A DNA stretch of 64,000 bases from an uncultured Bacilli bacterium (GCA_944331865.1 CALVIZ010000001.1:18766-82765); one strand, 5' to 3'. Counted from the stretch's first letter, positions 4,484-29,515 are shown. Made by a program: numbers and translations. The notes: generated from the sequence alone by a model not told the origin.

Positions 4484-5755
4484 TTATCTCTCATCCTTTG
4501 CTATTAAATCAATTATAGCTTTAGCTTTCTTAGACCAATCATTTTCCCTAGCTTCTTTATCTAATAATCCTATATATTTTTTATCATTTTTAAGTTTCAA
4601 AGCTTCATCTATTTTTTTAATAAATTCATCATGATTATGACCAATTAAAACACTTTTATACTTACGACATTCTGGCATATCAGTTGTAACTATTGGTTTA
4701 TGAAGTGCCATATATTCAAATATTTTAACAGGAGATGTAGCTAAAGTTATATTATTTATAACAAAGGGAATGGTTAAAACATCAGCATATTTTGCATATT
4801 CTTTTAACACTTTATAATCTCTAGGTCCCATAAAATATATATTTTTTTCATTACTTAAATTTTCATCAAAAGATTCATCATATTTAATTCCAAATAAGAC
4901 AATACTATATTTATTAGTATGAGCAAGTTTTTTGATTAAATCATAATCAAACCATTTTGCAAGTGCTCCATAATACATAATTATTGGTTTTTTCTTATTT
5001 AATATTTCTTGAAATTCATTTTCATATTTATAATTTTTATTATAAGTTTTAAAAAAGTCATAGTCTACCCCATTTGAAGAAAATACCATATTAGTTTTAC
5101 CACGCTGGCTAATTACATCTTTTTCTAAGGCATCAGCAGTAACAATTACATAAGTATTTTTATTATTCATAACATAATTATATTTATCTATTATATTTTG
5201 AGGAATATCTTTTGTTCCAGCAAGTTCAGGAGATATATCATCAATATATTCATAAATAAATTTAAAACCATTATTTATATAATTTTCTATATTTTGAACA
5301 GATAATTTCCAATCTGTTGAATACAATTGAACATATTTAGGTTTAGAAATATTTTCTAATTCATTCATTAATATTTTGTTTAATGCAATATTATTAAAAT
5401 TAATTAAATATAAGTTATTAGCATGTTTTTTTATAGTTTTTATTTTATCAGTCATAGTAGTAACTTCATAAAAAATTAAACAACCATTTTTAGCTAAATT
5501 ATTTGCTATATGTTGTGGTCTTTGAAAAAGTGGTACATTATAACCAAAAGAACTTCGCCATAATATTATTCTTTCATACTTATTTTTACTTAATATATTT
5601 TTAATTTCATTACGATATTTCTTTTTATTAAACATTACTTTAAAACTAATTTTATCCATATAATTTGCTTTTATATATGCATATAATTTTTTACAAAACC
5701 CAACAAATCCATATTTTTTATATACATTTACTAATTTAGATAATTTTTCTTTCAT
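4484..5755 (-). CDS. glycosyltransferase, GT1/GT4-like (TuaH-like)
   Basis: 423 aa. C-terminal 'ATSPVKIFEYMALHKPIVTT' is a GT-B nucleotide-sugar binding block. Confidence 0.6.
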   Translation of the reverse strand: MKEKLSKLVNVYKKYGFVGFCKKLYAYIKANYMDKISFKVMFNKKKYRNEIKNILSKNKYERIILWRSSFGYNVPLFQRPQHIANNLAKNGCLIFYEVTTMTDKIKTIKKHANNLYLINFNNIALNKILMNELENISKPKYVQLYSTDWKLSVQNIENYINNGFKFIYEYIDDISPELAGTKDIPQNIIDKYNYVMNNKNTYVIVTADALEKDVISQRGKTNMVFSSNGVDYDFFKTYNKNYKYENEFQEILNKKKPIIMYYGALAKWFDYDLIKKLAHTNKYSIVLFGIKYDESFDENLSNEKNIYFMGPRDYKVLKEYAKYADVLTIPFVINNITLATSPVKIFEYMALHKPIVTTDMPECRKYKSVLIGHNHDEFIKKIDEALKLKNDKKYIGLLDKEARENDWSKKAKAIIDLIAKDER

Positions 5756-5783
5756 CTTTAATCACCTTTAACACTAGAATAAC

Positions 5784-5811
5784 AAAAAAAAGAAACTATT
5801 ACAAGTTTCTT
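5784..5811 (-). terminator. rho-independent terminator downstream of galE
   Basis: AAGAAACT-6 nt-AGTTTCTT stem (5790-5811), followed on the minus strand by a T-run (A-run 5784-5789 on +). Confidence 0.6.
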
Positions 5812-5822
5812 AACTAAATTTC

Positions 5823-5858
5823 CAGGATAAACGCATGAGAAATTATGCGTTTATCCTG
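5823..5858. other. perfect 14-bp-stem hairpin immediately after galE
   Basis: CAGGATAAACGCAT-8 nt-ATGCGTTTATCCTG. Noticeably GC-richer than its surroundings and sits in tandem with the terminator at 5784-5811. Confidence 0.5.
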
Positions 5859-5877
5859 TCCAAATATACTCATTACT

Positions 5878-6885
5878 TTAATTTTTTTCATTTTGTTCTT
5901 GCATTAATATGAAATTATATGAATCTTTACACATATCATCTATGCCAAGTTCTGCTTTCCAACCTAGCTCTTTAAAAGCCTTAGTTGGATCAGCATAACA
6001 CTCTGCAACATCACCAGCTCTTCTTCCAACAATTTCATAAGGTATCTTAACATTATTTACTTTTTCAAAAGTATTTACTAAATCTAAAACACTATATCCC
6101 GTACCAGTACCTAAATTATAAATAAATAGTCCAGTTTCATTGTTTTCTAATGCTTTAACATGACCTTTTGCTAAATCAACAACATGAATATAATCTCTTA
6201 CTCCCGTACCATCATGAGTAGGATAATCATTACCAAATACACTTAAATGATCAAGCTTACCTACCGCTACCCTTACAATATATGGCATTAAATTATTTGG
6301 GATATCTTTTGGATCTTCTCCTAATAATCCTGCTTTTTCTGAACCAATAGGATTAAAATATCTAAGTAATGTTACCTTCCATTCATTATCAGCTTTATAA
6401 ATATCTGATAATATCCATTCATTTACTAATTTTGTTGTTCCATATGGATTAGTAGTAGAAAGTGGAAAATCTTCTTTTATAGGCAATGTTTCAGGAGTTC
6501 CATAAACAGTAGCACTTGATGAAAATACAATATTTTTACAATTGTGTTCCTTCATTACCTTTACTAAATTCATTGTTGACCCAACATTATTTTCATAATA
6601 TTCTAATGGTTTTTCTACAGATTCCCCAACTGCTTTAAGACCCGCAAAATGAATTACGGCATCAATTTTATTATCATCAAAAATTTTTGTTAGCAATTCA
6701 TAATCACAAACATCACCTTTAATAAAAGTAAACTCTTTATTTGTTAATGTCTTTATTTTATCAACTACCTCTATTTTAGAATTAACTAAATTATCAACAA
6801 TTATTACTTCATATCCATTATTAAGTAGTTCTACTACTGTATGACTTCCAATATAACCAGTTCCCCCAGTAACTAATATTTTCAT
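5878..6885 (-). CDS. galE: UDP-glucose 4-epimerase
   Basis: 335 aa. 'MKILVTGGTGYIGSHT' Rossmann fold, 'SSSATVYG', 'YGTTK' catalytic YxxxK. Full-length GalE pattern. Confidence 0.9.
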   Translation of the reverse strand: MKILVTGGTGYIGSHTVVELLNNGYEVIIVDNLVNSKIEVVDKIKTLTNKEFTFIKGDVCDYELLTKIFDDNKIDAVIHFAGLKAVGESVEKPLEYYENNVGSTMNLVKVMKEHNCKNIVFSSSATVYGTPETLPIKEDFPLSTTNPYGTTKLVNEWILSDIYKADNEWKVTLLRYFNPIGSEKAGLLGEDPKDIPNNLMPYIVRVAVGKLDHLSVFGNDYPTHDGTGVRDYIHVVDLAKGHVKALENNETGLFIYNLGTGTGYSVLDLVNTFEKVNNVKIPYEIVGRRAGDVAECYADPTKAFKELGWKAELGIDDMCKDSYNFILMQEQNEKN

Positions 6886-6950
6886 TTATACCTCCATTAA
6901 ACATATTATATTATAAGTTTAGCATATAAAATAATTTTTGTAAATTATAT

Positions 6951-6991
6951 AAAATTCGAAAACAGCTTATCATTTGCTGTTTTCGAATTTT
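6951..6991. terminator. 16-bp-stem hairpin terminator after the 117-aa membrane protein gene
   Basis: AAAATTCGAAAACAGC-9 nt-GCTGTTTTCGAATTTT, T/A-rich on both sides. Lies 2 nt after the stop at 6993. Confidence 0.65.
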
Positions 6992-6992
6992 A

Positions 6993-7346
6993 TTACTTTT
7001 TTACAATTATCATTAAAATGCCTAATAAAATCAAACCGGAACCAATTAGTTTAAATACTGTTATTTCTTCTTTAAAAAATATAAAAGCAGTAACCATTAA
7101 CAAAACATAAACTATTCCTACTGTTAACGGTGAAATAAACGACAATTCGAATTTACTAAGCAATATTGTATAAAAAACAAAACTTAATCCATATGATACA
7201 AACCCGATTAACATTAATAAAGATACATTTAAATTTATAGCTGGTACTGTAAATAAAGCCTTTACTGAATTTGATGAACCTAATTTTAATAAAGTTGAAC
7301 CACTTACAGAACAAATTACATAAAAAACTAAATACAACCAATTCAT
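6993..7346 (-). CDS. small DMT/SMR-like 4-TM membrane protein (ArnE/ArnF-like, putative lipid-linked sugar flippase)
   Basis: 117 aa with four hydrophobic helices. N-terminus 'YVICSVSGSTLLKLGS' resembles EamA/SMR-type transporters. Located inside a glycopolymer locus. Confidence 0.5.
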   Translation of the reverse strand: MNWLYLVFYVICSVSGSTLLKLGSSNSVKALFTVPAINLNVSLLMLIGFVSYGLSFVFYTILLSKFELSFISPLTVGIVYVLLMVTAFIFFKEEITVFKLIGSGLILLGILMIIVKK

Positions 7347-8410
7347 TATCTCTTATTAACCTTTCCTATAATTTGATTCATATACTTAACAGTATCTTTG
7401 CCAACATTTCCACTTAAATAAGGGTCTACTTTCCTAGTTTCTATTGAATCAATGAAATGTTTTAAAACAATTTCATGACCATATAACAAATTTCCTGTTA
7501 TCATTTTAAATCCACTTTTTATAAATTTTAGCCAAAATTGAAATGTTTTAGATAAATCGTTTTTTAATATATCTTTACTATAGTGTTCATTATCAGTCGG
7601 TAAATCAATTACAATGTCTCTAAATAAATCATATATAACTATCCTCTTTCTGAAATTAACTATATATTTCCATTCACATACTGGTGAGTTAAAATTTAAA
7701 AACATATGAACAGGAACTTGACCTGCTATTGCAGAAACACTCATTAATCTTGGAGTCTTATCATTTTTATCATCATTATATATTGCGTAAGCATTTTTTA
7801 TATTAATTTTTCCTCCATGGCGTTCTAACAAATAAATAAAATGAGCCGCTTCGTCATAAAAAAGTCCTAATGGTAATTCATTATACCAATGTGGTAGTCT
7901 TCTCTCTCTATTTGTAAATTGAACTTCAGTTATTGATAAAATATCACCATAATTTTTTTCTTCAATTATTTTGTTAATCTTATTCATGCCAGAAGTATAA
8001 TTAAAATTATGAACAACACTAAAAATTAATTTATTCTTATTTGCCAAATCTATCAATTCTTGCGCCTCATCCTCATTCATAGTCATTGGCTTTTCCACCA
8101 ATACGTCTTTCTTTAATAGCAAAGCCATTTTTACTAAAGGATAATGTTGTTGCGGTGGCGCTCCTATAACTACTGCATCTACTTCTTTAAACCACTCACA
8201 TTTCTCTACTTTTTTTATATCATTTTTAGGATCATTAACCAACAGTTTATTAACAATTTTTTGCTTTTTACAAGTATAATCCAACTTTTTAGGATTACTA
8301 CTAATAACGCCTACAATTTCTACGTTTTTTATTTTTCTCAAAGCTGGAATATGCCTTGTATTAGATATGTTTCCACCACCAATTATGCATATTTTAATTT
8401 TTTTAATCAT
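7346..8410 (-). CDS. Gfo/Idh/MocA-family NAD(P)-dependent oxidoreductase (sugar-nucleotide modifying)
   Basis: 354 aa. N-terminal 'KICIIGGGNISNTRHIPAL' Rossmann fold and 'VLVEKPM' motif. Confidence 0.75.
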   Translation of the reverse strand: MIKKIKICIIGGGNISNTRHIPALRKIKNVEIVGVISSNPKKLDYTCKKQKIVNKLLVNDPKNDIKKVEKCEWFKEVDAVVIGAPPQQHYPLVKMALLLKKDVLVEKPMTMNEDEAQELIDLANKNKLIFSVVHNFNYTSGMNKINKIIEEKNYGDILSITEVQFTNRERRLPHWYNELPLGLFYDEAAHFIYLLERHGGKINIKNAYAIYNDDKNDKTPRLMSVSAIAGQVPVHMFLNFNSPVCEWKYIVNFRKRIVIYDLFRDIVIDLPTDNEHYSKDILKNDLSKTFQFWLKFIKSGFKMITGNLLYGHEIVLKHFIDSIETRKVDPYLSGNVGKDTVKYMNQIIGKVNKR

Positions 8411-9533
8411 TTTTATTCAACTCCTTAATTACATTTTCTGCAGTTATTTTCCATGTAAAATGTTTTTTCACTCTATTATATATTTCATTTTTCATACTTT
8501 TTACCTTAGAAGGATTATCTATTAAATATTTTAAAGCATTGTAAAGTGAATTTTCATTTTCTTCGATTATAATTCCATATTTTTTATCATTAATCACTTC
8601 TTTAGTACCACCACGATCCGTAGCTATGATAGCACATTTCATAATACCAGCCTCTAATATAGATGTTGGAAGTCCTTCTGGATACATTGAAGGATTTACA
8701 AAAATGTCTGTTGAATTATACAATGACATAACATCATCATAATCTAATTTACCTTCAAAGTAAATATTTTTATTAGTGTATTTTGACTTTATTTCATTTA
8801 ATAATGGACCATCTCCAGCTATAACCAAAGTAATATTATTATATTCCTTTTGTAACTTAGTAAACGAATCCAACAATAATAATACTCCTTTTTCTTTTAT
8901 TATTCTTCCAACATAAGTTATAACTATTTTATTTTTTAAATTTCTTTTATATTTGCTATTTTCATATTTTTCATAGACATTTTCATCTACAGAATTATAA
9001 AATATTCCTGATGCTATAATCTTAAAATGCTTTAACCAATTATTACATCTTTCTGATACCCCAAAAAATTGAGGATTATATTTTTTTAATCTATTAGTTA
9101 AAAAATGTTCATACTTAGCTCCCATAAAATCCAAAATTTTATTATTAACCGTAAAATGACTACTACCATGTTCGATGACAAACATTTTTTTATTATATTT
9201 TTTAGCTATTTTACCACAAAGTATTGATGTTAAATAAAACCTTGTGTTACATATATAAAAATCACAATTTTCTTCTTCAATCATTTTTATAATTTTTTTG
9301 AATGCTTTGGTTTTCTTTAATATTGGATATTTTGATTTAACTATATTATATGTTGGCAACCTATAAATAAAACAGTTTTCTAATTGTTCATAATCAGCAT
9401 AATTATTATCATTACTACATACTACAATTACTTTATAACCTTTATTTTTTAATTCTTTAGCTAATTTATCAGTATATCTCTCAACACCACCTAGATGGGG
9501 AAGAAAAAAGCCAGTAAAAATACAAATTTTCAT
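8403..9533 (-). CDS. glycosyltransferase family 4 (GT-B)
   Basis: 376 aa. 'PEGLPTSILEAGIMKCAIIATDRGG' is the EX7E-type GT4 block. Confidence 0.75.
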   Translation of the reverse strand: MKICIFTGFFLPHLGGVERYTDKLAKELKNKGYKVIVVCSNDNNYADYEQLENCFIYRLPTYNIVKSKYPILKKTKAFKKIIKMIEEENCDFYICNTRFYLTSILCGKIAKKYNKKMFVIEHGSSHFTVNNKILDFMGAKYEHFLTNRLKKYNPQFFGVSERCNNWLKHFKIIASGIFYNSVDENVYEKYENSKYKRNLKNKIVITYVGRIIKEKGVLLLLDSFTKLQKEYNNITLVIAGDGPLLNEIKSKYTNKNIYFEGKLDYDDVMSLYNSTDIFVNPSMYPEGLPTSILEAGIMKCAIIATDRGGTKEVINDKKYGIIIEENENSLYNALKYLIDNPSKVKSMKNEIYNRVKKHFTWKITAENVIKELNKND

Positions 9534-9865
9534 TTTTTATTTTTCCTCTCCGCTTTTAGTAAAGCGATATTTTGAGCCAAATCTGTAATTTTTTCTTCTT
9601 GTTCTGCAATTTTTCTGCTACAACGAAAATTAATAAATAAAAGAAAAACAATGCAAATGGTAAAAAGTAAAGATGGGGAATAACCTATTCCTAAAAAGTT
9701 AGCCAATTTATCTAATAAATTAGGAACTATTGCTAATATCAGCATTATTAATGAAGCTAAAAACCAATAAATACTTTCCTTTATTGAAAACTTACCTTTT
9801 TTAACTTCAGCAATCACATATATAATTGCTATAAGTGCTACAATTATAAAATAAATTCGTTTCAT
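9530..9865 (-). CDS. DUF2304-like small membrane protein
   Basis: 111 aa with 3 TM helices and a C-terminal amphipathic/coiled tail. This architecture and its position right after a GT2 domain are typical of DUF2304. Confidence 0.5.
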   Translation of the reverse strand: MKRIYFIIVALIAIIYVIAEVKKGKFSIKESIYWFLASLIMLILAIVPNLLDKLANFLGIGYSPSLLFTICIVFLLFINFRCSRKIAEQEEKITDLAQNIALLKAERKNKK

Positions 9866-9867
9866 CT

Positions 9868-12243
9868 TTACCTCCTTTTACCATTAATAATTATTATAAA
9901 CATTATAGTATAAATTACATTAATCATATATTTGATTGGTTTTATTATTCCGCTATGCATACTTTTTCCTTCATCGTTTTCTTTCATTTTAACTGCTACT
10001 TCTGATATTTTATAATCTTTAAGTAACATTTCTATTATTAAATTAGCATCAGGAAATTCTGGATAATTTCCAATTTTTGAATAATATTTAATTACATTTT
10101 TATCTAGAAGTTGAAAACCTGAGGTAGGATCGGTAATATTTTCTTTACAAAACCATTTAATTATTAATTGAAACAATTTTGTTCCTATCTTTCTAAATAA
10201 AGGATGCTTATAATCTGTTTTTTCCAAAAATCTTGAGCCAATAATTATATTAGAATCACTTTTTTTATATTTATTTATTAATTTTTTGGCTTCGCTAGCT
10301 AAATGTTGACCATCTGCATCAAATTGAATTACAAAATCATAATCATGTTCGTAAGCATACTTTATTCCTGTTTGTACAGCCATTGCATACCCCATATTAA
10401 ACGGAACATTTAAACATGGAATACCAAGATTTTCTACTATTTCTTTAGTATTATCTGTCGAATAATCATTAGTAACTACTATATCAGCATTTGGCATATT
10501 CTTTCTAATATCAAGAATTACTTTTTCAATATGTTTAGATTCATTAAAAGCAGGAATTACAAAAATAATTTTACTTTTATCTGTCAGTTTTATTTTTTCT
10601 ATTTTTTCAGCCTTTATTTTTGTAGGCATATTTTTAGGAATAAATAATAGAATCAAACCAAGTAATATAAGGGGAAATGCAACAAAGGCATATCTATCAA
10701 TTATTGCTCCCAGAACTGCATGAAATGCTACATGCAAAAAAGCAGAACCAAACAAAACCGTCGATAATAAAAATATATCATTTTCTTTATGTTTAACAAA
10801 TTTAACCAAACTATATATAGCTAAAGGTAATGCCAAGAAAAATAATATCTTAAACAAATATAAATAAAACGGCGAAATATCATTTATAATTTTTCCTAAT
10901 GTTTCATTATGATTTTCCACGCCTTCAAAAGCTGTCATATATTTTACTTCATTATATTCGTACACTTCTTCTCCCCAAGAAGGATACTCCCACCAACATT
11001 TTGTTGTCTCTTGAAAAATTAAAAGCCCAATACTTGTATTTTCGTGTGTAGCATTAAAATTAAATTCATTTATTGTGGTATATCCTAATTCATATGAAAT
11101 TACATTAGATTGATATAAATTTATTATTCCCATAAAATTTCTATAATAAGAAGATAAAGTTAATGTTGGATTTTTTAATGTATTCTTAAACCAAAAAATT
11201 AAACTTTCTCCAACAGAAATCTGAGTATCTTCTGAAATTAATGAAGTTTGTCTAATTAAATTACCATAATTATCACGAACATCATAAATCTTTACATAAT
11301 CGCACCAATTTTTATTTGTTTCACTTAATTCAACAATTCCGATTTTTTCATTTTGGGACAACTCTGAATTAATTATATAATCTATATTACAATATATATC
11401 TTTCGACAATTCGGAATAATGAGCATTTAATCCCGTAATAATACCTTTGGATAAAAAACCAGAACTACTATTACTAGTATTTATTTCAATGTCATTATTC
11501 TGTAATACTCCATTCCATATTAAAATAGATATTAATAAAACAAATAAAGAAATTAATATACAAATAAATTTTTCACCAAACTTTTTAAAACTTTTTTCTC
11601 TAATTCCAATTAAAATACTAAATATAAATAAAATAAAAATTATTATTGGCATATACGGTTGTTTTAAAAACCACATAAATACAACAATTAATGTAAATAT
11701 AATTGTATATAAGATTGTTTTTTTCTTACTTTTATTCCAAAACATATCTTTCCATTTATAAGCTAAATACACTGTTAACATAATTATAGAAGGAGCCACA
11801 GCCTCAGTTAAAAGAGTATGCGAATAACCTATAATTAGAGGGTTAAACATAAACAATATTAAATATAAAAACCAATAAATAACATTACTTCTGCCTTGAT
11901 TATATTTATTTAAAATGCTTTTTAATATCAAGGCAGAAGTCAATAACAAAACAATATACAATAAGAAAAAACCAATTAATATGCCTGTAGGATTACTTCC
12001 AAATAAATGTTTAAACACATACAATATCACAGGAAATGAAAAACCACGCGTAATTGACCACGTTGAAAACGGCGAATCTCCATCCAAAATATTTGTATAC
12101 CAGTAATACGCAGACCCATCTGGAGTTACAATCAAAGAAAATTGAAAATATAATATTCCAAAAAGTATTAGAAAGATTAATGGAATAATAATTTTTTTAT
12201 TTATTTTTTTCTTCATTTTTTTTCTCCTCAAAATTTTCATCAA
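9868..12243 (-). CDS. fusion protein: N-terminal polytopic GT-C-like membrane domain + C-terminal GT2 (Dpm1/GtrB-like) glycosyltransferase
   Basis: 791 aa. About 540 aa with many TM helices, then 'IFVIPAFNESKHIEKVILDIRK...VVTNDYSTDNT...QFDADGQH' GT2 blocks and a terminal TM helix. Confidence 0.65.
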   Translation of the reverse strand: MMKILRRKKMKKKINKKIIIPLIFLILFGILYFQFSLIVTPDGSAYYWYTNILDGDSPFSTWSITRGFSFPVILYVFKHLFGSNPTGILIGFFLLYIVLLLTSALILKSILNKYNQGRSNVIYWFLYLILFMFNPLIIGYSHTLLTEAVAPSIIMLTVYLAYKWKDMFWNKSKKKTILYTIIFTLIVVFMWFLKQPYMPIIIFILFIFSILIGIREKSFKKFGEKFICILISLFVLLISILIWNGVLQNNDIEINTSNSSSGFLSKGIITGLNAHYSELSKDIYCNIDYIINSELSQNEKIGIVELSETNKNWCDYVKIYDVRDNYGNLIRQTSLISEDTQISVGESLIFWFKNTLKNPTLTLSSYYRNFMGIINLYQSNVISYELGYTTINEFNFNATHENTSIGLLIFQETTKCWWEYPSWGEEVYEYNEVKYMTAFEGVENHNETLGKIINDISPFYLYLFKILFFLALPLAIYSLVKFVKHKENDIFLLSTVLFGSAFLHVAFHAVLGAIIDRYAFVAFPLILLGLILLFIPKNMPTKIKAEKIEKIKLTDKSKIIFVIPAFNESKHIEKVILDIRKNMPNADIVVTNDYSTDNTKEIVENLGIPCLNVPFNMGYAMAVQTGIKYAYEHDYDFVIQFDADGQHLASEAKKLINKYKKSDSNIIIGSRFLEKTDYKHPLFRKIGTKLFQLIIKWFCKENITDPTSGFQLLDKNVIKYYSKIGNYPEFPDANLIIEMLLKDYKISEVAVKMKENDEGKSMHSGIIKPIKYMINVIYTIMFIIIINGKRR

Positions 12244-25108: not shown

Positions 25109-25860
25109 TTAAAAATTATCTTTTCCTACAAACACATTGTAAATTTCATTATATCTATAACCTAGTTTAATATGGTTTGAATCTTTTACTAAAATTTTTA
25201 AATCAACTAATTTATCAATTAAAGTAGAAACTGTATTTCTAGAAACACCTGATTCGTTTGCTATTTCTTGTTTAGTAAAAACTATTTGGTGCATTATCGC
25301 TGGCATAATTCTAAAAACAGCATTACTTTTTAATATTTCAATTTTTTCCATATCCTTTATATATATTTGTTTAATTCTATTTATCTTAGCAATATAATTA
25401 TCACATTGATCAATTATACATTGTAAAAAGAATTTAATAAAACCACTTATATTCCCATTTCTACTTTCATTTAATAATTTATAATATGTAGGTTTATATA
25501 ATTCTATAATTTCAGATAAAAATAAAATAGGTTCATCATTAGTTAACATAGCTAATTGGATAGAAATTAAAGCCCTTCCAAGTCTTCCATTACCATCTCG
25601 GTAAGCATGAATTGTTTCAAATTGTGAATGCGAAATAGCTAAATTAATAAATATAGGATCAATATAAGCATCATTCATATATTGAAATAAATTATCTAAT
25701 AAAATTGGAACTTCTTCTGGTTCTGGTGGAATAAAAACCGCTTGGTCTATTGTACATCCTTTAGGTCCAATCCAATTTTGAATATTTCTAATTTTTCCAG
25801 GTTCTTTTTCATTACCCTGCGTACAAATTGCATTATAGCATAAAAAAAAATTTTTGTGTA
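25109..25860 (-). pseudogene. 5'-truncated Fic-family gene (Fic core + C-terminal wHTH; Fic_N region missing)
   Basis: Fic motif 'HAYRDGNGRLGR'. The frame stays open upstream of the first Met (..GKIRNIQNWIGPKGCTIDQAVFIPPEPEEVPILLDNLFQY-MNDAY..) and runs into the 3' end of the neighbouring gene without a start or RBS. About 100 N-terminal residues of a typical Fic_N domain are absent. Confidence 0.6.
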
Positions 25861-25871
25861 AGCAAAAATTT

Positions 25872-27287
25872 TTATTTTTTATTCTTATTCTTTTTTTTCT
25901 TATTATTGTCTATGTTATCATAAACTATTTCTTTAGTTTTATTATTTTCTTCTTTTATTATATTCTCATTTTTTTCCTCTTTTACTTCCACAGTATTATT
26001 CTTTATATGTTTTTTCTTCTTACCTTTAGTAACAGCAATTAATATAATAAACATTAAGATAAATACACCAATAAAACCAAATATAATATAAGTGTATAAT
26101 TTATTTTTTTCCATCAATAAATTAATCATTTCGTCATCATATTTTATAGCAGTTTGGTTTTTCTTATCATATTTAAAGAATCCTTCTTCACCAGTTTCAA
26201 CATTTATTCCATAAATAATGGCAAATCTAGAACTTTCACTCACAAAATATGCTGGAATTTGCACTTCATTTATAGTTATTTCTCCACTTTTATAACCATT
26301 TAAAACTTCTTTTGTATCTTTAGGATAAATAGTTATATTTGTAAACTTTAATTCATTATAAACTTTATAACTATTATTTTCTTCATCATATATATATAAA
26401 TTTATATTTCCAGAAGAATCTTTAAGACCTACCAAAACAAAACCGGTAAGTTCACTTTTATATGCTGGAATCTCAAAATCATTAATATTAACGGTAGTTT
26501 CTTGATAAGCATTAACACTTGGTAAATATTCTTTTATTTTAACTACTGTATAATTTTGATTATCTATTGTTACATTTATAGGATTTTCATCTTTTACTTC
26601 TACAGTTAAATTATAAGTTCTTTCACTTCCATTTTGAGCCCTAACAACTATTTGAAAAGTATTAGTTCCTTGGGTTACTTCAACAGTACCTACTCCTGAT
26701 AAATCAGATTTTGAATCATTAACTGCAGCATTTATAGTAATTTCTTTGGTATTTTCAGGAACTACTACACTATAATCAGCAACATCTTTATTAAATTCTG
26801 GAGTTATTTCAAAACCTTCAACTGACAAACTTTTTAAATAATTATCTTTAGAATATGTTGCTTCTAATTCTTCTTGTGTCATAATTTTTACTGTTTTACT
26901 TGATGCACTTAAATTCATTTCACTCATATCTTCATAAGCAAAGGCTTGATAACTTGCCATACTAATTTTAGTATTTCCCTTTTTTAAGGCTTTAAACTTA
27001 AAAGTATAACTTTTACTAGTTACTCCAGCAGAAGAATTAACCATATTTACACCGCCAGCCTCACTTGTTGCACTAATAAGCTGCAAATAATTCTTATCAT
27101 AGTTTAAGTCCATATCCCAACTACCAATTTTAGTTTTACTAGATAAAACAACATTTATTGTAACAGTATTTCCAATTACAACTTGTGATGTACCAGTAAT
27201 TCTAATGGTACCACTTGCAGCATTAACTGAAAAAGGTATTACTAATAAACAAAACAAACTAAAAATTATTTTTTTTAACTTTCCCAT
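25872..27287 (-). CDS. membrane-anchored surface protein: signal peptide + cohesin-like domain + cadherin-like beta-sandwich domain + C-terminal TM and Lys-rich tail
   Basis: 471 aa. 'IRITGTSQVVIGNTVTINVVLSSKTKIGSWDMDLNYDKNYLQLIS' looks like a cohesin. 'LKSLSVEGFEITPEFNKDVADYSVVV...ERTYNLTVEV' looks like a cadherin-like domain. TM helix 'YTYIIFGFIGVFILMFIILIAV'. Strong RBS AAGGAGGA. Confidence 0.6.
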   Translation of the reverse strand: MGKLKKIIFSLFCLLVIPFSVNAASGTIRITGTSQVVIGNTVTINVVLSSKTKIGSWDMDLNYDKNYLQLISATSEAGGVNMVNSSAGVTSKSYTFKFKALKKGNTKISMASYQAFAYEDMSEMNLSASSKTVKIMTQEELEATYSKDNYLKSLSVEGFEITPEFNKDVADYSVVVPENTKEITINAAVNDSKSDLSGVGTVEVTQGTNTFQIVVRAQNGSERTYNLTVEVKDENPINVTIDNQNYTVVKIKEYLPSVNAYQETTVNINDFEIPAYKSELTGFVLVGLKDSSGNINLYIYDEENNSYKVYNELKFTNITIYPKDTKEVLNGYKSGEITINEVQIPAYFVSESSRFAIIYGINVETGEEGFFKYDKKNQTAIKYDDEMINLLMEKNKLYTYIIFGFIGVFILMFIILIAVTKGKKKKHIKNNTVEVKEEKNENIIKEENNKTKEIVYDNIDNNKKKKNKNKK

Positions 27288-27297
27288 TTTATCCTCC

Positions 27298-29031
27298 TTA
27301 TTGAACTATTTTATAAGTGCCTAATATATCTTTTTGAACTTGTAATAAATCAAGAGCATTTATAATACCATCTCCTGATGTATCACCAGCTTCTTTATAT
27401 ACTCCACTTAAAGTATATGTTCCTAGTATATATTTTTGGACTTGTAATAAATCAAGAGCATTTATAATGCCATCTCCTGATGTATCACCACTTATAACAA
27501 TTTGTAATATTTCACTTCCATTTTTATTATTAATTTTAACTTTCATGCCAGTTGTGCTCTTCCCACTAGTTATAATATTACCATCTTTATCCATAACAGT
27601 AACACTATTATAACCTGCAACTGATTCTAAAACTCCTTTAACAGTTGCAATATCGGTATTTACTTCTATCCCTTTAATATAACCACTTTTATATTTATAG
27701 CCACTTGAAGTAACTATTGTATTAATAGATAAATCGCTTAAATTAGAATCAGGAGTTTCTCCAGTTGCTCCACCACTACTATTACTAATTGTTGCATTCA
27801 TATTATTATAAACAGGAATATAAAACACAAAAGATTCATTTAATAAATTACTTTCACTATATGATTTATAAGTAGATGCAGATTCGCTTGATGGACCTTT
27901 TAAATTAGTTTGATATTGATGAATAAATTGATTATTTGAATTTGTAGGAACAACATTAAATTTTTGTAAATATGTATTATATTGACCTTTATCTATATAA
28001 GATGAAGAAATATAACTAGCTCCCCCTTTAATTGCATTATAAACTCCATACCAATTATTATCTTTAGCATATTTTAATCCACAATAAGTAGCCCCATTAG
28101 TTGTAGCACAAGTATCACTTACACCATAATTATAAAAATTATAATAGCCTTCAAATCCTGGATATACACCACTATATAAATTATATAATGATGTTTTTGA
28201 CCCTAATTCTAGTAGTGATCTAGAGGCTAAAAAAACAGGATTAGCATTAACTTCTTTACCGGCATCATTAAATACATTTGCTAAATCTACACTCAAAGCA
28301 AGATGATATTTATAAAATTCTGCTCCAGATATAATTAATTTAATTGTACTAGGATAAATTTCATTAAGATTGTTTGAATATTTTAAATATTCAAATTGAA
28401 ATATATATCTTTCAGACAAAAAGTTTCTAGGATCCATATAATATGCTACAGCTTTTTGACTAGCATTTTTCCATTCACTATCCCAGCCATATGTATTATC
28501 ACAACTTCTATCCATAAATTCTTCATTACTAGTTTGTATATAACTTTTTCCACAAATACTTTCTCTTTCAACAGCATAAGACCAATCAACATTTGTTTGA
28601 ATGGCAACAAATTGCCAATTAGGATGATTTTCTTTTAAAGTACACAATCCCCCCCAATAACTAGATGGAAAACCAGCATCACTCATTTCTTGTTCACAAG
28701 TATTACTAGGTGCAATATCATCAGTGCTATAACTTCTAACAACATCAACATGGTCTCCACAAATATACCCAACATCAATACCATTATAATATGCTTGATA
28801 CCAATCACTATTGCAATTATAATGATTATTAGTGTCTTGATAAGTTTTATCTTCCACTAAAATATAATTGTCTCCTAAATAAGCAATGCCAATATTCTTA
28901 TATTGAGTTCCAGGGCCTGTTCTTATATTACAAGTTGCATTAATATAACCACGAACAGTTTCACTAGCACTTACATCTATCATAAATAAAAATAAAATCA
29001 TACAAAATGTTATAAATTTTATATATTTCAT
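27298..29031 (-). CDS. secreted SH3b + glucosaminidase-like (putative peptidoglycan hydrolase) protein with C-terminal dockerin (two repeats)
   Basis: 577 aa. Signal peptide, then SH3b-like 'INATCNIRTGPGTQYKNIGIAYLGDNYILV'. 'YYMDPRNFL...IFQFEYL' is a motif seen ahead of GH73-type autolysin domains. C-terminal 2x 'GDTSGDGIINALDLLQVQK.ILGTY' forms a dockerin. Confidence 0.6.
   Translation of the reverse strand: MKYIKFITFCMILFLFMIDVSASETVRGYINATCNIRTGPGTQYKNIGIAYLGDNYILVEDKTYQDTNNHYNCNSDWYQAYYNGIDVGYICGDHVDVVRSYSTDDIAPSNTCEQEMSDAGFPSSYWGGLCTLKENHPNWQFVAIQTNVDWSYAVERESICGKSYIQTSNEEFMDRSCDNTYGWDSEWKNASQKAVAYYMDPRNFLSERYIFQFEYLKYSNNLNEIYPSTIKLIISGAEFYKYHLALSVDLANVFNDAGKEVNANPVFLASRSLLELGSKTSLYNLYSGVYPGFEGYYNFYNYGVSDTCATTNGATYCGLKYAKDNNWYGVYNAIKGGASYISSSYIDKGQYNTYLQKFNVVPTNSNNQFIHQYQTNLKGPSSESASTYKSYSESNLLNESFVFYIPVYNNMNATISNSSGGATGETPDSNLSDLSINTIVTSSGYKYKSGYIKGIEVNTDIATVKGVLESVAGYNSVTVMDKDGNIITSGKSTTGMKVKINNKNGSEILQIVISGDTSGDGIINALDLLQVQKYILGTYTLSGVYKEAGDTSGDGIINALDLLQVQKDILGTYKIVQ
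27331..27489. repeat. near-identical 57-nt direct repeat (period 102 nt) encoding the two dockerin segments
   Basis: 27331-27387 versus 27433-27489 differ at 2 of 57 positions. Confidence 0.9.
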
Positions 29032-29176
29032 TGTATTCTCCTTACTTTAGACTCATATTAATTATAACATTTAAATAAAATATCGACAAATATTTACAAA
29101 AATTAATGTAAATCCACTGTAAACTCTATTAATTTTTATTAGTTTATATTATAATAAATTTGAAATGGTGGTTTTA

Positions 29177-29515
29177 ATGGATAAACAATTTGATAGGATA
29201 GACATAATATTTATAGTTTTAATATCACTATATTTACTAGTATTAGTAATAGGTATATTATGGATAATTTTAGATAAAATTGAAAAAAAGAACAATTTAA
29301 AAAAAGAACATAAAATGATTGAAGAAAAGAGCAAATATAAAACAAAAGATACAAATCAAAAAAATTCAAATAGCAAAAATAAAAATAATAAAGTCAAAAA
29401 TAAAACTACAACAAAAAAGAAAAATACTAAAAATAACTCTTCTAAAAGGAACACCGGTTATATATCTCCAACAAAAAGGAAAAAGAAGAAAAAAAAGACA
29501 TCTCGCAAAAAGTGA
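29177..29515 (+). CDS. small single-TM protein with extremely Lys/Asn-rich tail
   Basis: GGTGG RBS 5 nt before the ATG at 29177. One TM helix ('IIFIVLISLYLLVLVIGILWIIL'), then about 75 aa of K/N/T-rich low complexity. One of the few plus-strand ORFs. Confidence 0.45.
   Translation: MDKQFDRIDIIFIVLISLYLLVLVIGILWIILDKIEKKNNLKKEHKMIEEKSKYKTKDTNQKNSNSKNKNNKVKNKTTTKKKNTKNNSSKRNTGYISPTKRKKKKKKTSRKK

Follow-up and report, generated by a model that had tools for sequence, protein, structure and literature searches.

A cohesin–dockerin gene pair that may tether a peptidoglycan hydrolase to the membrane in genome-reduced gut Bacilli

Two adjacent genes of an uncultured Bacilli bacterium from the chicken gut are probably a single operon encoding a self-contained tether, in which a dockerin-bearing glucosaminidase is held at the producer's own membrane surface by a cohesin-carrying anchor encoded by the neighboring gene. 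A first-pass annotation had proposed a dedicated cohesin–dockerin pairing at this locus, and the proposal is supported by the cohesin and dockerin complement of the genome, by a nearly invariant gene order across related genomes, and by specific co-variation of the two modules. Both genes lie on the minus strand of the 64,000-nucleotide stretch of DNA that was analyzed (the window), as do all features described below.

The upstream gene (27298–29031; ORF of 577 aa) encodes a secreted protein with SH3b, GH73-like glucosaminidase and dockerin modules, as read from Pfam, NCBIfam, PDB, AlphaFold2 and Foldseek comparisons. The gene for the membrane anchor (25872–27287; ORF of 471 aa; Pfam, AlphaFold2, Foldseek) follows 3′ on the same strand after a gap of 10 nt, and the two co-oriented ORFs have the positions and lengths given in the first-pass annotation. 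About 30 nt 5′ of the hydrolase start codon, a consensus scan identified a promoter-like site (29061–29089; TTGTCG, a 17-nt spacer and TG-TATAAT), a pattern match only, with 10 of 12 consensus matches and an extended −10 element. The anchor gene has an AAGGAGG ribosome-binding site (27293–27299, read from the sequence) that overlaps the TAA stop codon of the hydrolase gene. Short metatranscriptome contigs cover part of the hydrolase gene, which is weak evidence. The genes 5′ of the pair (GT2, GtrA, GT2, DUF6020, LCP and an LtaS-like gene) make wall glycopolymers, and the neighborhood contains no CBM or glycoside hydrolase for plant polymers; both the cell-wall-biogenesis context and the lack of plant-polymer enzymes nearby had been noted in the first-pass annotation and hold.

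Judged from its sequence and model, the upstream product appears to be a Sec-secreted peptidoglycan glycan-strand hydrolase with a GH73 catalytic domain nearest to the SagB, AtlE and Atl glucosaminidases; its predicted activity is cleavage of the GlcNAc-beta-1,4-MurNAc bond. It begins with a signal peptide (residues 1–23, 28963–29031), seen in the sequence and as an N-terminal helix at residues 2–15 in the AlphaFold2 model (pLDDT 87.4), with putative cleavage at ...DVSA|SE, and neither sequence nor model contains a further transmembrane (TM) helix. The following SH3b domain (residues 24–100, 28732–28962) scores just under the cut-off of Pfam SH3_3 (26.8 versus 27 bits), passes it in many orthologues, and recovers SH3b structures with Foldseek, in line with the SH3b-like domain described earlier. 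Residues 101–410 (27802–28731) form the GH73-like N-acetylglucosaminidase region, which matches NCBIfam SagB over residues 184–401 (2e-17, 63.3 bits) and, by sequence, the solved GH73 enzymes AtlE (4pi7, 2.7e-12), SagB (2.3e-11), Atl (7.6e-10) and Acp (6.3e-8). The top Foldseek match of the model is SagB 6fxp (1.1e-11, TM 0.76), with SagB structures ranging from 1.1e-11 to 3.3e-11 at TM 0.67–0.76 and 25% identity. The motif SLLELG aligns with ALVETG of AtlE, so that E275 (codon at 28207–28209) corresponds to the AtlE catalytic glutamate, the residue mutated in 4pi8; E275, D200 and R202 are invariant among 69 orthologues. Membership in the SagB family NF052642 itself was rejected, since the score of 63.3 bits falls far short of the 425 required, the signal peptide is cleavable, and there is no TM helix. 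The glucosaminidase-like region of the first-pass annotation is thus retained in its GH73 fold and catalytic glutamate, but not as a match to the PF01832 profile: Pfam gave no PF01832 match at E<=1, a PF01832 search of the genome did not recover the protein, and distant orthologues score only 18 bits. Between this region and the dockerin lies a small alpha/beta module (residues 436–512, 27496–27726; AlphaFold2 pLDDT 81–96) with no Pfam match. Because the genome contains another GH73-like ORF, a small one that has a TM anchor of its own, the 577-aa enzyme is not the sole candidate glucosaminidase.

The C-terminal type I dockerin (residues 513–577, 27301–27495) comprises two segments of the form GDTSGDGIINALDLLQVQKxILGTY, as the first-pass annotation had it. 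It reaches 49.5 bits with Dockerin_1 (PF00404; cut-off 22.9, residues 515–570) and superposes on 1ohz_B with a TM score of 0.94 and an rmsd of 0.7 Å, and on 2ccl_B with 0.90 (Foldseek). Each segment of approximately 22 residues consists of an EF-hand-like Ca2+ loop and a helix, the loops being D516-x-S518-x-D520-...-N524-...-D527 and D550-...-D561. Across the 69 orthologues, D516, S518, D520 and D527 are invariant, and conservation of the loop acids is complete or above 90%. No module of the hydrolase is better conserved than the dockerin, whose mean identity is 76% compared with 55% for the catalytic core. At the DNA level, the two segments form a 77-nt direct repeat with 92% identity, and their identity within a protein (0.64) exceeds that between orthologous segments (0.50); the two segments evolve in concert.

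The downstream gene is predicted, from sequence and model, to encode a bitopic membrane protein with a three-domain beta stalk that carries the cohesin at its tip, above the cadherin-like domain and D3. In order, the protein comprises a signal peptide, the cohesin, the cadherin-like domain, D3, a TM helix and a Lys-rich tail (AlphaFold2 pLDDT 86.3; 90–97 in the cohesin). The cohesin domain (residues 24–136, 26880–27218) matches PF00963 over residues 28–134 by a small margin (26.0 bits, cut-off 24.1) and scores 30.1 bits in a six-frame search of the whole genome. This match passes the check set in the first-pass annotation, which called for a cohesin HMM match over residues ~25–140. Its model is a nine-stranded beta-sandwich superposable on solved cohesins: the top Foldseek matches of the anchor are the Clostridium perfringens GH84C cohesins 2w1n (1.8e-9) and 2jh2 (TM 0.69, rmsd 3.5 Å), followed by cellulosomal type I and type II cohesins (4ums, TM 0.61; 4uyp_C, TM 0.59). 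The cadherin-like beta-sandwich (residues 146–235, 26583–26852) matches PF12733 over residues 151–230 (34.6 bits, cut-off 24.2). The C-terminal TM helix (residues ~395–420, 26028–26105) coincides with the hydrophobic stretch YTYIIFGFIGVFILMFIILIAV and lies inside a modeled helix spanning residues 385–421; this one helix in the sequence suggests that the protein serves as a membrane tether. The Lys-rich, disordered cytoplasmic tail (residues 421–471, 25875–26027; pLDDT <50 over 424–462) is conserved in composition, not in sequence. All the anchor parts listed in the first-pass annotation, namely a signal peptide, a cohesin-like N-terminal domain, a cadherin-like beta-sandwich, a TM helix and a Lys-rich tail, were recovered, but the list had overlooked a third extracellular domain (residues ~233–392). 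This membrane-proximal, all-beta domain, D3 (residues 236–390, 26118–26582; AlphaFold2 pLDDT >90), contains approximately 150 residues with two internal repeats ending in G..G.Y.YD....T.Q.Y. It has no Pfam or PDB sequence match and is conserved out to Erysipelotrichaceae homologues.

The genome (1.19 Mb, 95% complete) encodes exactly two dockerins and two cohesins, and both dockerin genes lie directly upstream of a gene for a cohesin-TM protein. A cellulosome or amylosome was rejected in view of this set, with one module per protein, and of the wall-hydrolase cargo. The second pair combines a 1572-aa Big_2 dockerin protein with a paralogous anchor (29% identity, 1e-15), and the dockerin helices of the two pairs clearly differ (NALDLLQVQKxILG versus NMTDLIKLRKYFAG), each beside its own cohesin. 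The pairing of the second anchor with a Big_2 protein, together with the abundance of PF12733 in giant surface proteins, could be taken to mean that the anchor is primarily an adhesin or cell–cell contact protein with a cadherin-like and Ig-like stalk, the link to a hydrolase being secondary. We regard this as extremely improbable, as the stalk is short with a single cadherin-like domain, and the gene immediately upstream of the orthologous anchor encodes a wall hydrolase in every one of the more than 130 genomes through which it was followed.

This arrangement was surveyed in 201 genomes of the order from 98 genera, 200 of them in the family of the window (f1), a lineage with genomes of 0.6–1.6 Mb. 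The anchor is present in 167 of the 201 genomes and the hydrolase in 156. Where both were listed, the hydrolase gene is directly upstream of the anchor gene on the same strand in 133 of 134 genomes. The same adjacency is found in all 73 named MAG loci, with gaps of −11 to +20 nt, and a two-segment dockerin ends the hydrolase in each of the 73. No pair was detected in between 34 and 45 genomes (17–22% of the 201), although FtsW/RodA is encoded in all 201, and the system is thus not essential.

Mirror-tree analysis of 119 pairs, with partial correlations controlling for the GH core and 2000 permutations, revealed that dockerin and cohesin distances correlate with r 0.88 and a partial r of 0.79, a value reached in 0 of 2000 permutations. 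The partial r of the dockerin is 0.27 with the cadherin-like domain and 0.13 with D3; the distant-only subset gives 0.71 for the cohesin versus 0.09 and 0.19 for the other anchor domains, and the close-only subset 0.48 versus 0.15 and 0.03. Shared recombination history of adjacent DNA can inflate such correlations, and here no more than approximately 0.6 kb separates the 3′ end of the dockerin from the 5′ end of the cohesin. Among the anchor domains, it is specifically the cohesin that co-varies with the dockerin; the other two do not. This co-evolution across more than 100 genomes makes it most likely that the enzyme is tethered at its own membrane surface.

It also weighs against the idea that the two products are merely co-expressed, the cohesin-like domain having some other binding partner (a glycan, a host molecule or the genome's second dockerin protein) and the dockerin binding elsewhere or acting as a Ca2+-stabilized tail. 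The marginal cohesin HMM score fits such a reading, as does the N-terminal anchor domain of distant genera, which Pfam reads only as TIG-like or Inhibitor_I42-like, and the second dockerin of the genome could cross-bind; the distinct helices of the two pairs, each next to its own cohesin, speak against it. One genus (g49) bears on both sides. Its hydrolase has lost the dockerin and carries five SH3_3 repeats instead, with the anchor gene still directly downstream, and this retention suggests that the anchor may have a dockerin-independent role. However, the cohesin is the fastest-evolving anchor domain in this genus (46% identity versus 59–64% for the other domains, the 5th percentile of comparable pairs), a pattern that fits relaxed constraint after loss of the partner. 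Taken together, we consider a pair that does not bind very unlikely.

In the tethering arrangement that we favor, the dockerin of the exported hydrolase would bind the cohesin on the protein encoded by the neighboring gene, presumably in a Ca2+-dependent manner by analogy with other dockerins, and the near-identical dockerin helices suggest that either of two orientations is possible (a dual binding mode). Rather than being released, the bound glucosaminidase would be kept on the producer's membrane, one stalk length off, with the SH3b as its N-terminal wall-binding domain. In that position its substrate would be the glycan strands of the producer's own wall, and it could plausibly trim strands that are nascent or lie in the inner wall, or help daughter cells to separate. 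Such a tether would be functionally comparable to the membrane attachment of SagB in Staphylococcus aureus, where SagB and SpdC constitute a peptidoglycan release complex (PDB 6u0o; bioRxiv 10.1101/2020.05.21.109470). By this analogy, the present system probably works like SagB–SpdC, in that a GH73 glucosaminidase is predicted to be kept at the membrane through a second, membrane-embedded protein. The attachment differs: SagB is itself anchored by an N-terminal TM helix and meets its partner, the polytopic, CAAX-like SpdC, inside the membrane, whereas the present enzyme starts with a cleavable signal peptide and its predicted cohesin–dockerin link is extracellular.

The same anchor also occurs in other families of Bacilli, with a dockerin-bearing wall glycosidase encoded directly upstream in 8 of 8 loci fetched. 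These include Erysipelotrichaceae, among them the cultured Merdibacter massiliensis (WP_075877298 and WP_075877299). Of the eight enzymes, two belong to the query subtype, one is a GH25 muramidase, and the other five are canonical GH73 enzymes that pass the PF01832 profile at 52–66 bits. The cargo is swapped, yet only among peptidoglycan glycan hydrolases. We find it conceivable, if rather doubtful, that the anchor is an active ruler, in which the constant domain D3, the TM helix and the Lys-rich tail dock onto other machinery while the stalk sets the depth at which the hydrolase cuts. The docking partner could be the wall-synthesis or division machinery, or lipoteichoic acid, and the cutting depth could be set for any glycan hydrolase that is plugged in, whether of either GH73 subtype or GH25. 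Autolysins would in that case be controlled by a modular, extracellular plug and socket, as an alternative to the FtsEX or SpdC type of control, and this arrangement would be common to gut Bacilli with reduced genomes, to Erysipelotrichaceae and, if a report on Ruminococcus bicirculans is a guide, to Clostridia; the anchor retained next to the dockerin-less hydrolase of g49 would then reflect this second function.

Cargo swaps between GH73 subtypes and GH25 are also typical of diversifying, competition-related genes, and the cohesin might instead display the hydrolase at the cell surface to lyse neighboring gut bacteria. Dockerin-bearing lysozymes and other cell-wall hydrolases are described from Ruminococcus champanellensis and rumen cellulosomes. 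In rumen metagenomes, the lysozymes and D-Ala-D-Ala peptidases have been read as tools of attack or defense (PMC6487960), and the term "lyticome" has been used (PMC6403190). Like these proteins, the present hydrolase fuses a dockerin to a module predicted to cleave peptidoglycan, its SH3b domain could target foreign walls, and 17–22% of the sampled genomes of the order do without the pair. The rumen dockerins, however, plug into multi-cohesin scaffoldins and are thought to attack other bacteria, while here the genomes lack cellulosomes and a one-to-one operon supplies the dockerin with a membrane-anchored cohesin of its own. A short three-domain stalk in the producer's membrane would put the enzyme within or below the wall of the producer itself. 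No immunity gene is evident, and the nearest solved relatives are the housekeeping autolysins SagB, Atl, AtlE and Acp. Moreover, the pair is retained in most genera of a lineage with genomes of 0.6–1.6 Mb, and the dockerin and catalytic core are under strong purifying, not diversifying, selection. A weapon is therefore unlikely, and attachment at the producer's own membrane remains the best explanation.

Single-cohesin anchoring proteins are known from cellulosomes, for example OlpA and OlpC of Clostridium thermocellum; they are attached to the wall by SLH domains and take plant-polysaccharide enzymes as cargo. The present pair resembles them in its type I-like dockerin with near-identical segments and, if binding occurs as predicted, in the capture of one dockerin enzyme by one cell-bound cohesin; it differs in its C-terminal TM helix, its stalk of cadherin-like domain and D3, and its predicted autolysin cargo. 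The best structural matches to the cohesin, the C. perfringens GH84C/NagJ modules (2w1n, 2jh2, 2o4e), are likewise non-cellulosomal. They assemble secreted, non-cellulolytic glycoside hydrolases, with the cohesin on one enzyme and the dockerin on another, into soluble toxin–enzyme complexes acting on host glycans, in contrast to a dedicated membrane anchor with a single cohesin and a peptidoglycan hydrolase as cargo. The closest precedent is R. bicirculans, for which a lone cohesin and a lone dockerin associated with a GH73 enzyme were reported (Wegmann et al, 2014, cited by Ze et al, 2015, PMC4611034). As described there, it too is a gut Firmicute that is not cellulolytic, and its minimal complement of cohesin and dockerin is tied to a GH73 peptidoglycan hydrolase; the genome studied here has such a set. 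Compared by literature description only, the two differ in that R. bicirculans belongs to the Clostridia and the present pair to the Bacilli; the account in question is a single sentence, which gives no cohesin-protein architecture, synteny survey or co-evolution analysis. The pair is thus neither unique nor new as an idea, its kind having been noted in print; with the basic association published and very frequent in genome data, the surprise is moderate.

How potentially lethal wall hydrolases are kept in place is an active question for Gram-positive bacteria. Their known solutions are TM anchors with membrane partners (SagB–SpdC, LytH–ActH), coupling to FtsEX, and wall-binding repeats. If the pair binds as predicted, a cellulosome connector would provide a fourth, modular solution, put to housekeeping use throughout a family of gut Bacilli that are uncultured and genome-reduced, and in cultured Erysipelotrichaceae as well, and the accepted biological role of cohesin–dockerin modules would be wider. 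It would also offer naturally orthogonal cohesin–dockerin pairs, with two sequence types in this genome and several across genera. The tethering idea is testable in the cultured carrier M. massiliensis, which carries two such pairs.

Both genes lie on the minus strand, and their products, a 577-aa hydrolase (window 27298-29031) and a 471-aa anchor (25872-27287), have the lengths given in the first-pass annotation, which had read them as a cohesin-dockerin pair that may tether a peptidoglycan hydrolase to the membrane. That observation is confirmed, and the tether interpretation is supported. Six lines of evidence mark the pairing as meaningful: the genome's content of cohesins and dockerins, synteny in the order, synteny at named loci, the conservation of the dockerin, its co-evolution with the cohesin, and the concerted change of its two segments. 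As proposed there, the hydrolase begins with a signal peptide and has a Dockerin_1 module (49.5 bits in Pfam) at its C-terminus. Its SH3b domain, matched by SH3_3 after the signal peptide, scores 26.8 bits, just under the Pfam cut-off of 27, and the Pfam Glucosaminidase profile (PF01832), which had been suggested as a check, neither hits the central region nor detects this GH73 subtype in its own genome. The glucosaminidase-like region itself stands: it matches NCBIfam SagB (2e-17) and, among solved GH73 structures, AtlE, SagB, Atl, and Acp, with Glu275 aligned to the catalytic Glu of AtlE. An AlphaFold2 model built from an alignment of 69 orthologues (pLDDT 87.4) retrieves SagB first in Foldseek (6fxp; 1.1e-11, TM 0.76), followed by the SagB-SpdC complex, Atl, Acp, and AtlE, and its dockerin superposes on that of C. 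thermocellum Xyn10B at 0.7 A. Glu275, the Asp and Arg of 'YYMDPRNF', and the acidic residues of the dockerin Ca loops are invariant among the orthologues, the dockerin being the best-conserved module of the protein (76% versus 55% for the catalytic core).

The architecture proposed for the downstream gene is borne out in full by Pfam, sequence, and model. The anchor comprises a signal peptide, a cohesin (26.0 bits against a cut-off of 24.1; 30.1 bits in the genome search), a cadherin-like domain (34.6 bits in Pfam), and, at the C-terminus, a single TM helix with a Lys-rich tail that is disordered. The best structural matches of its model (pLDDT 86.3) are cohesins from C. perfringens GH84C, which are non-cellulosomal (2w1n, 2jh2, 2o4e), with cellulosomal cohesins of types I and II next. 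The first-pass annotation was silent on a further membrane-proximal, all-beta domain, D3, which is confidently modeled at residues about 233-392; window 26118-26582 (minus strand) covers its residues from about 236 to 390. D3 shows two internal repeats, each ending in 'G..G.Y.YD....T.Q.Y', and is conserved out to Erysipelotrichaceae. A profile of 26 diverse D3 segments found no credible relatives among PDB sequences or in Pfam, and a Foldseek search with the whole anchor model did not identify the domain, its output being dominated by cohesin and Ig matches. When the anchor alignment is used as a profile, giant proteins with many cadherin-like repeats swamp the list; full-length matches occur in dozens of 50%-identity clusters.

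The genes are separated by 10 nt, and the TAA stop codon of the hydrolase overlaps the AAGGAGG of the anchor. A sequence scan found no terminator-like hairpin between them, and pattern matching points to a possible promoter, including an extended -10 element, ~30 nt before the hydrolase ATG. Metatranscriptome contigs from chicken gut and wastewater contain only a few fragments of 150-355 nt over the hydrolase gene and do not cover the anchor gene or the gene junction.

This arrangement is widespread. In a survey of the order (201 genomes from 98 genera, 0.6-1.6 Mb), the anchor occurs in 167/201 and the hydrolase in 156/201 genomes, and the hydrolase lies immediately upstream of the anchor on the same strand in 133 of the 134 genomes with both listed. 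Relatives that bear names comprise gut MAGs of uncultured 'Bacilli' or 'Tenericutes' as well as Candidatus Onthocola, Candidatus Caccenecus, and Clostridium sp. CAG:609, which NCBI places in 'Bacilli incertae sedis'. At all 73 named MAG loci, the distance from the end of the upstream ORF to the anchor start is between -11 and +20 nt, and the ORF terminates in 'GDTSGDGxINALDLLQVQKxILGTY' twice. The pair is absent from 17-22% of the order genomes sampled. Loss of peptidoglycan does not explain this absence because FtsW/RodA is encoded by all 201 genomes; the window bacterium is likewise walled.

Beyond the order, a class-wide sample contains full-length anchor homologues in three other families, and a dockerin-bearing enzyme is encoded directly upstream in all eight loci fetched. 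The cargo varies (two full-length homologues of the window hydrolase, five canonical PF01832 GH73 enzymes, and one GH25 muramidase), and the constant element is therefore the anchor with its cadherin-like domain, D3, and TM helix. The cargo is swapped only among enzymes that cut peptidoglycan glycan strands, which is the strongest argument for the dedication to wall hydrolases previously inferred for the pair. Two such operons are found in Merdibacter massiliensis, a cultured member of the Erysipelotrichaceae (loci L139 and L140, contigs 23 and 20). One combines the GH73 cargo WP_075877298 with the anchor WP_075877299, named by NCBI only as 'dockerin type I / glucosaminidase domain-containing' and 'cadherin-like beta sandwich domain-containing' proteins; the other carries a GH25 cargo whose second dockerin segment is partly degenerate. 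M. massiliensis is a tractable experimental model. The system is real and coherent, it occurs widely, and this cultured relative makes it testable.

Domain-wise pairwise distances in 119 hydrolase-anchor pairs spanning the family further connect the two modules. Dockerin and cohesin distances correlate with r = 0.88, and with a partial r of 0.79 when the catalytic GH73-like core is controlled for, a co-variation signal that joint replacement of these modules, encoded within about 0.6 kb, by recombination would also yield. The partial r with the dockerin is 0.27 for the cadherin-like domain and 0.13 for D3, both domains of the same anchor polypeptide. None of 2000 permutations reached 0.79, bootstrapping gives a 95% interval of the difference in partial r that lies far from zero, and the cohesin-specific contrast is present in both the distant and the close subset. 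Like the operon structure and the fold assignments, this co-evolution is shown by the analysis. The dockerin helices diverge strongly between genera (NALDLLQVQK, SAVDYVKIKN, DKLDYLAVLR, and others), which implies that the cohesin has kept pace with the dockerin through several type changes. Whether by co-evolution or by recombination, the distances indicate that dockerin and cohesin are inherited as a matched set.

The two dockerin segments of the window hydrolase form a direct repeat of 77 nt (27312-27388 and 27414-27490, 102 nt apart) with 92% identity. Segment identity is higher within a protein (0.64) than between orthologous segments (0.50), and parallel change of the two segments is seen across orthologues. 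This pattern points to concerted evolution or gene conversion; concerted change of the segments is what a dual binding mode predicts.

An exception is the genus g49, whose hydrolase orthologues (L088 and L095; G162:C38 and G157:C1) feature five SH3_3 repeats and a C-terminal GH73 domain but no dockerin. The anchor gene is still located directly downstream. In a single species pair, the g49 cohesin is the fastest-evolving anchor domain (46% versus 59-64% for the others; 5th percentile of comparable pairs), which would fit relaxed constraint in this one case; the remainder of the anchor may have a role that does not depend on a dockerin. Another g49 dockerin-like module (37.5 bits; L136:961-3030, minus strand, at ~501 kb of G157:C1) was rejected as a rescue of the pairing since it sits mid-protein in an unrelated, Cna-B-like surface protein of the LPxTG type. 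That protein ends in 'VPNTG' and a TM helix, a sortase-type sorting signal, and is an unusual location for a dockerin.

The whole genome of the window bacterium holds exactly two dockerins and two cohesins. The second set is encoded on contig 37 (L005, minus strand). There, a Big_2-domain protein of 1572 aa (6370-11088) carries a dockerin with 'NMTDLIKLRKYFAG' helices at its C-terminus, and a 376-aa anchor (5243-6373) has a signal peptide, a cohesin, a pair of cadherin-like domains, and a TM helix. The two genes overlap by 4 nt. No catalytic domain was recognised in the 1572-aa protein, and the smaller protein is a paralogue of the window anchor (29% identity). The helices of the two dockerins clearly differ in sequence, and the pair on contig 37 is probably orthogonal to that of the window.

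A local tblastn search had suggested that the dockerin enzyme is the only glucosaminidase of the genome. We abandoned this idea because a PF01832 search revealed a second, small GH73-like ORF on contig 20 (271 aa; L146:1441-2256, minus strand). This ORF matches weakly, its 23.9 bits falling short of the cut-off. It has an N-terminal TM helix and the motif 'AQIESGYTS' and is a candidate SagB-like membrane-anchored glucosaminidase.

In the mechanism we propose, the hydrolase would be exported by Sec, and its dockerin would plug into the cohesin that tops a membrane-rooted three-domain stalk. The SagB-like glucosaminidase would thereby be retained close to the membrane's outer surface and would there act on the cell's own peptidoglycan, and the SH3b domain may add substrate affinity. 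We infer binding, its Ca2+ dependence, the enzymatic specificity, and the physiological role. Established non-cellulosomal cohesin-dockerin pairs occur in the toxin complexes of C. perfringens, the species whose cohesins are the top structural matches of the window anchor model. Such pairs are also established for the R. bromii amylosome (PMC4611034), and rumen cellulosome surveys describe dockerin-lysozyme fusions, the source of the 'lyticome' suggestion (PMC6487960, PMC6403190). The most relevant precedent comes from Ze et al, who associate a lone cohesin and dockerin with a GH73 enzyme in Ruminococcus bicirculans (PMC4611034). Our literature search found no paper testing binding, describing a membrane-anchored stalk protein, or reporting the module from Bacilli or Erysipelotrichaceae. 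To cellulosome specialists the idea would be no novelty and no surprise, and the window pair is a further, well-documented case of a kind noted before but uncharacterised.

The window spans positions 18766-82765 of contig 1. The genome measures 1.19 Mb at 95% completeness, with about 24% G+C, and near-identical DNA is present in chicken-gut metagenomes of many independent studies. The genes just upstream of the pair encode GT2, GtrA, GT2, DUF6020, an LCP ligase, and an LtaS-like enzyme, in agreement with the cell-wall-biogenesis setting described earlier. On the other side, a 189-aa ORF (25109-25678, minus strand) abuts the anchor gene and combines a winged-helix HTH with a partial Fic match covering only positions 52-93 of the 93-position profile, its C-terminal part; it resembles a Fic gene truncated at its 5' end. 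In the interval from the hydrolase promoter to the GT2 gene, the opposite strand (29165-29515, plus) contains a candidate 116-aa ORF with spurious Pfam matches only, whose product would have a single TM helix and then a Lys/Asn-rich tail.
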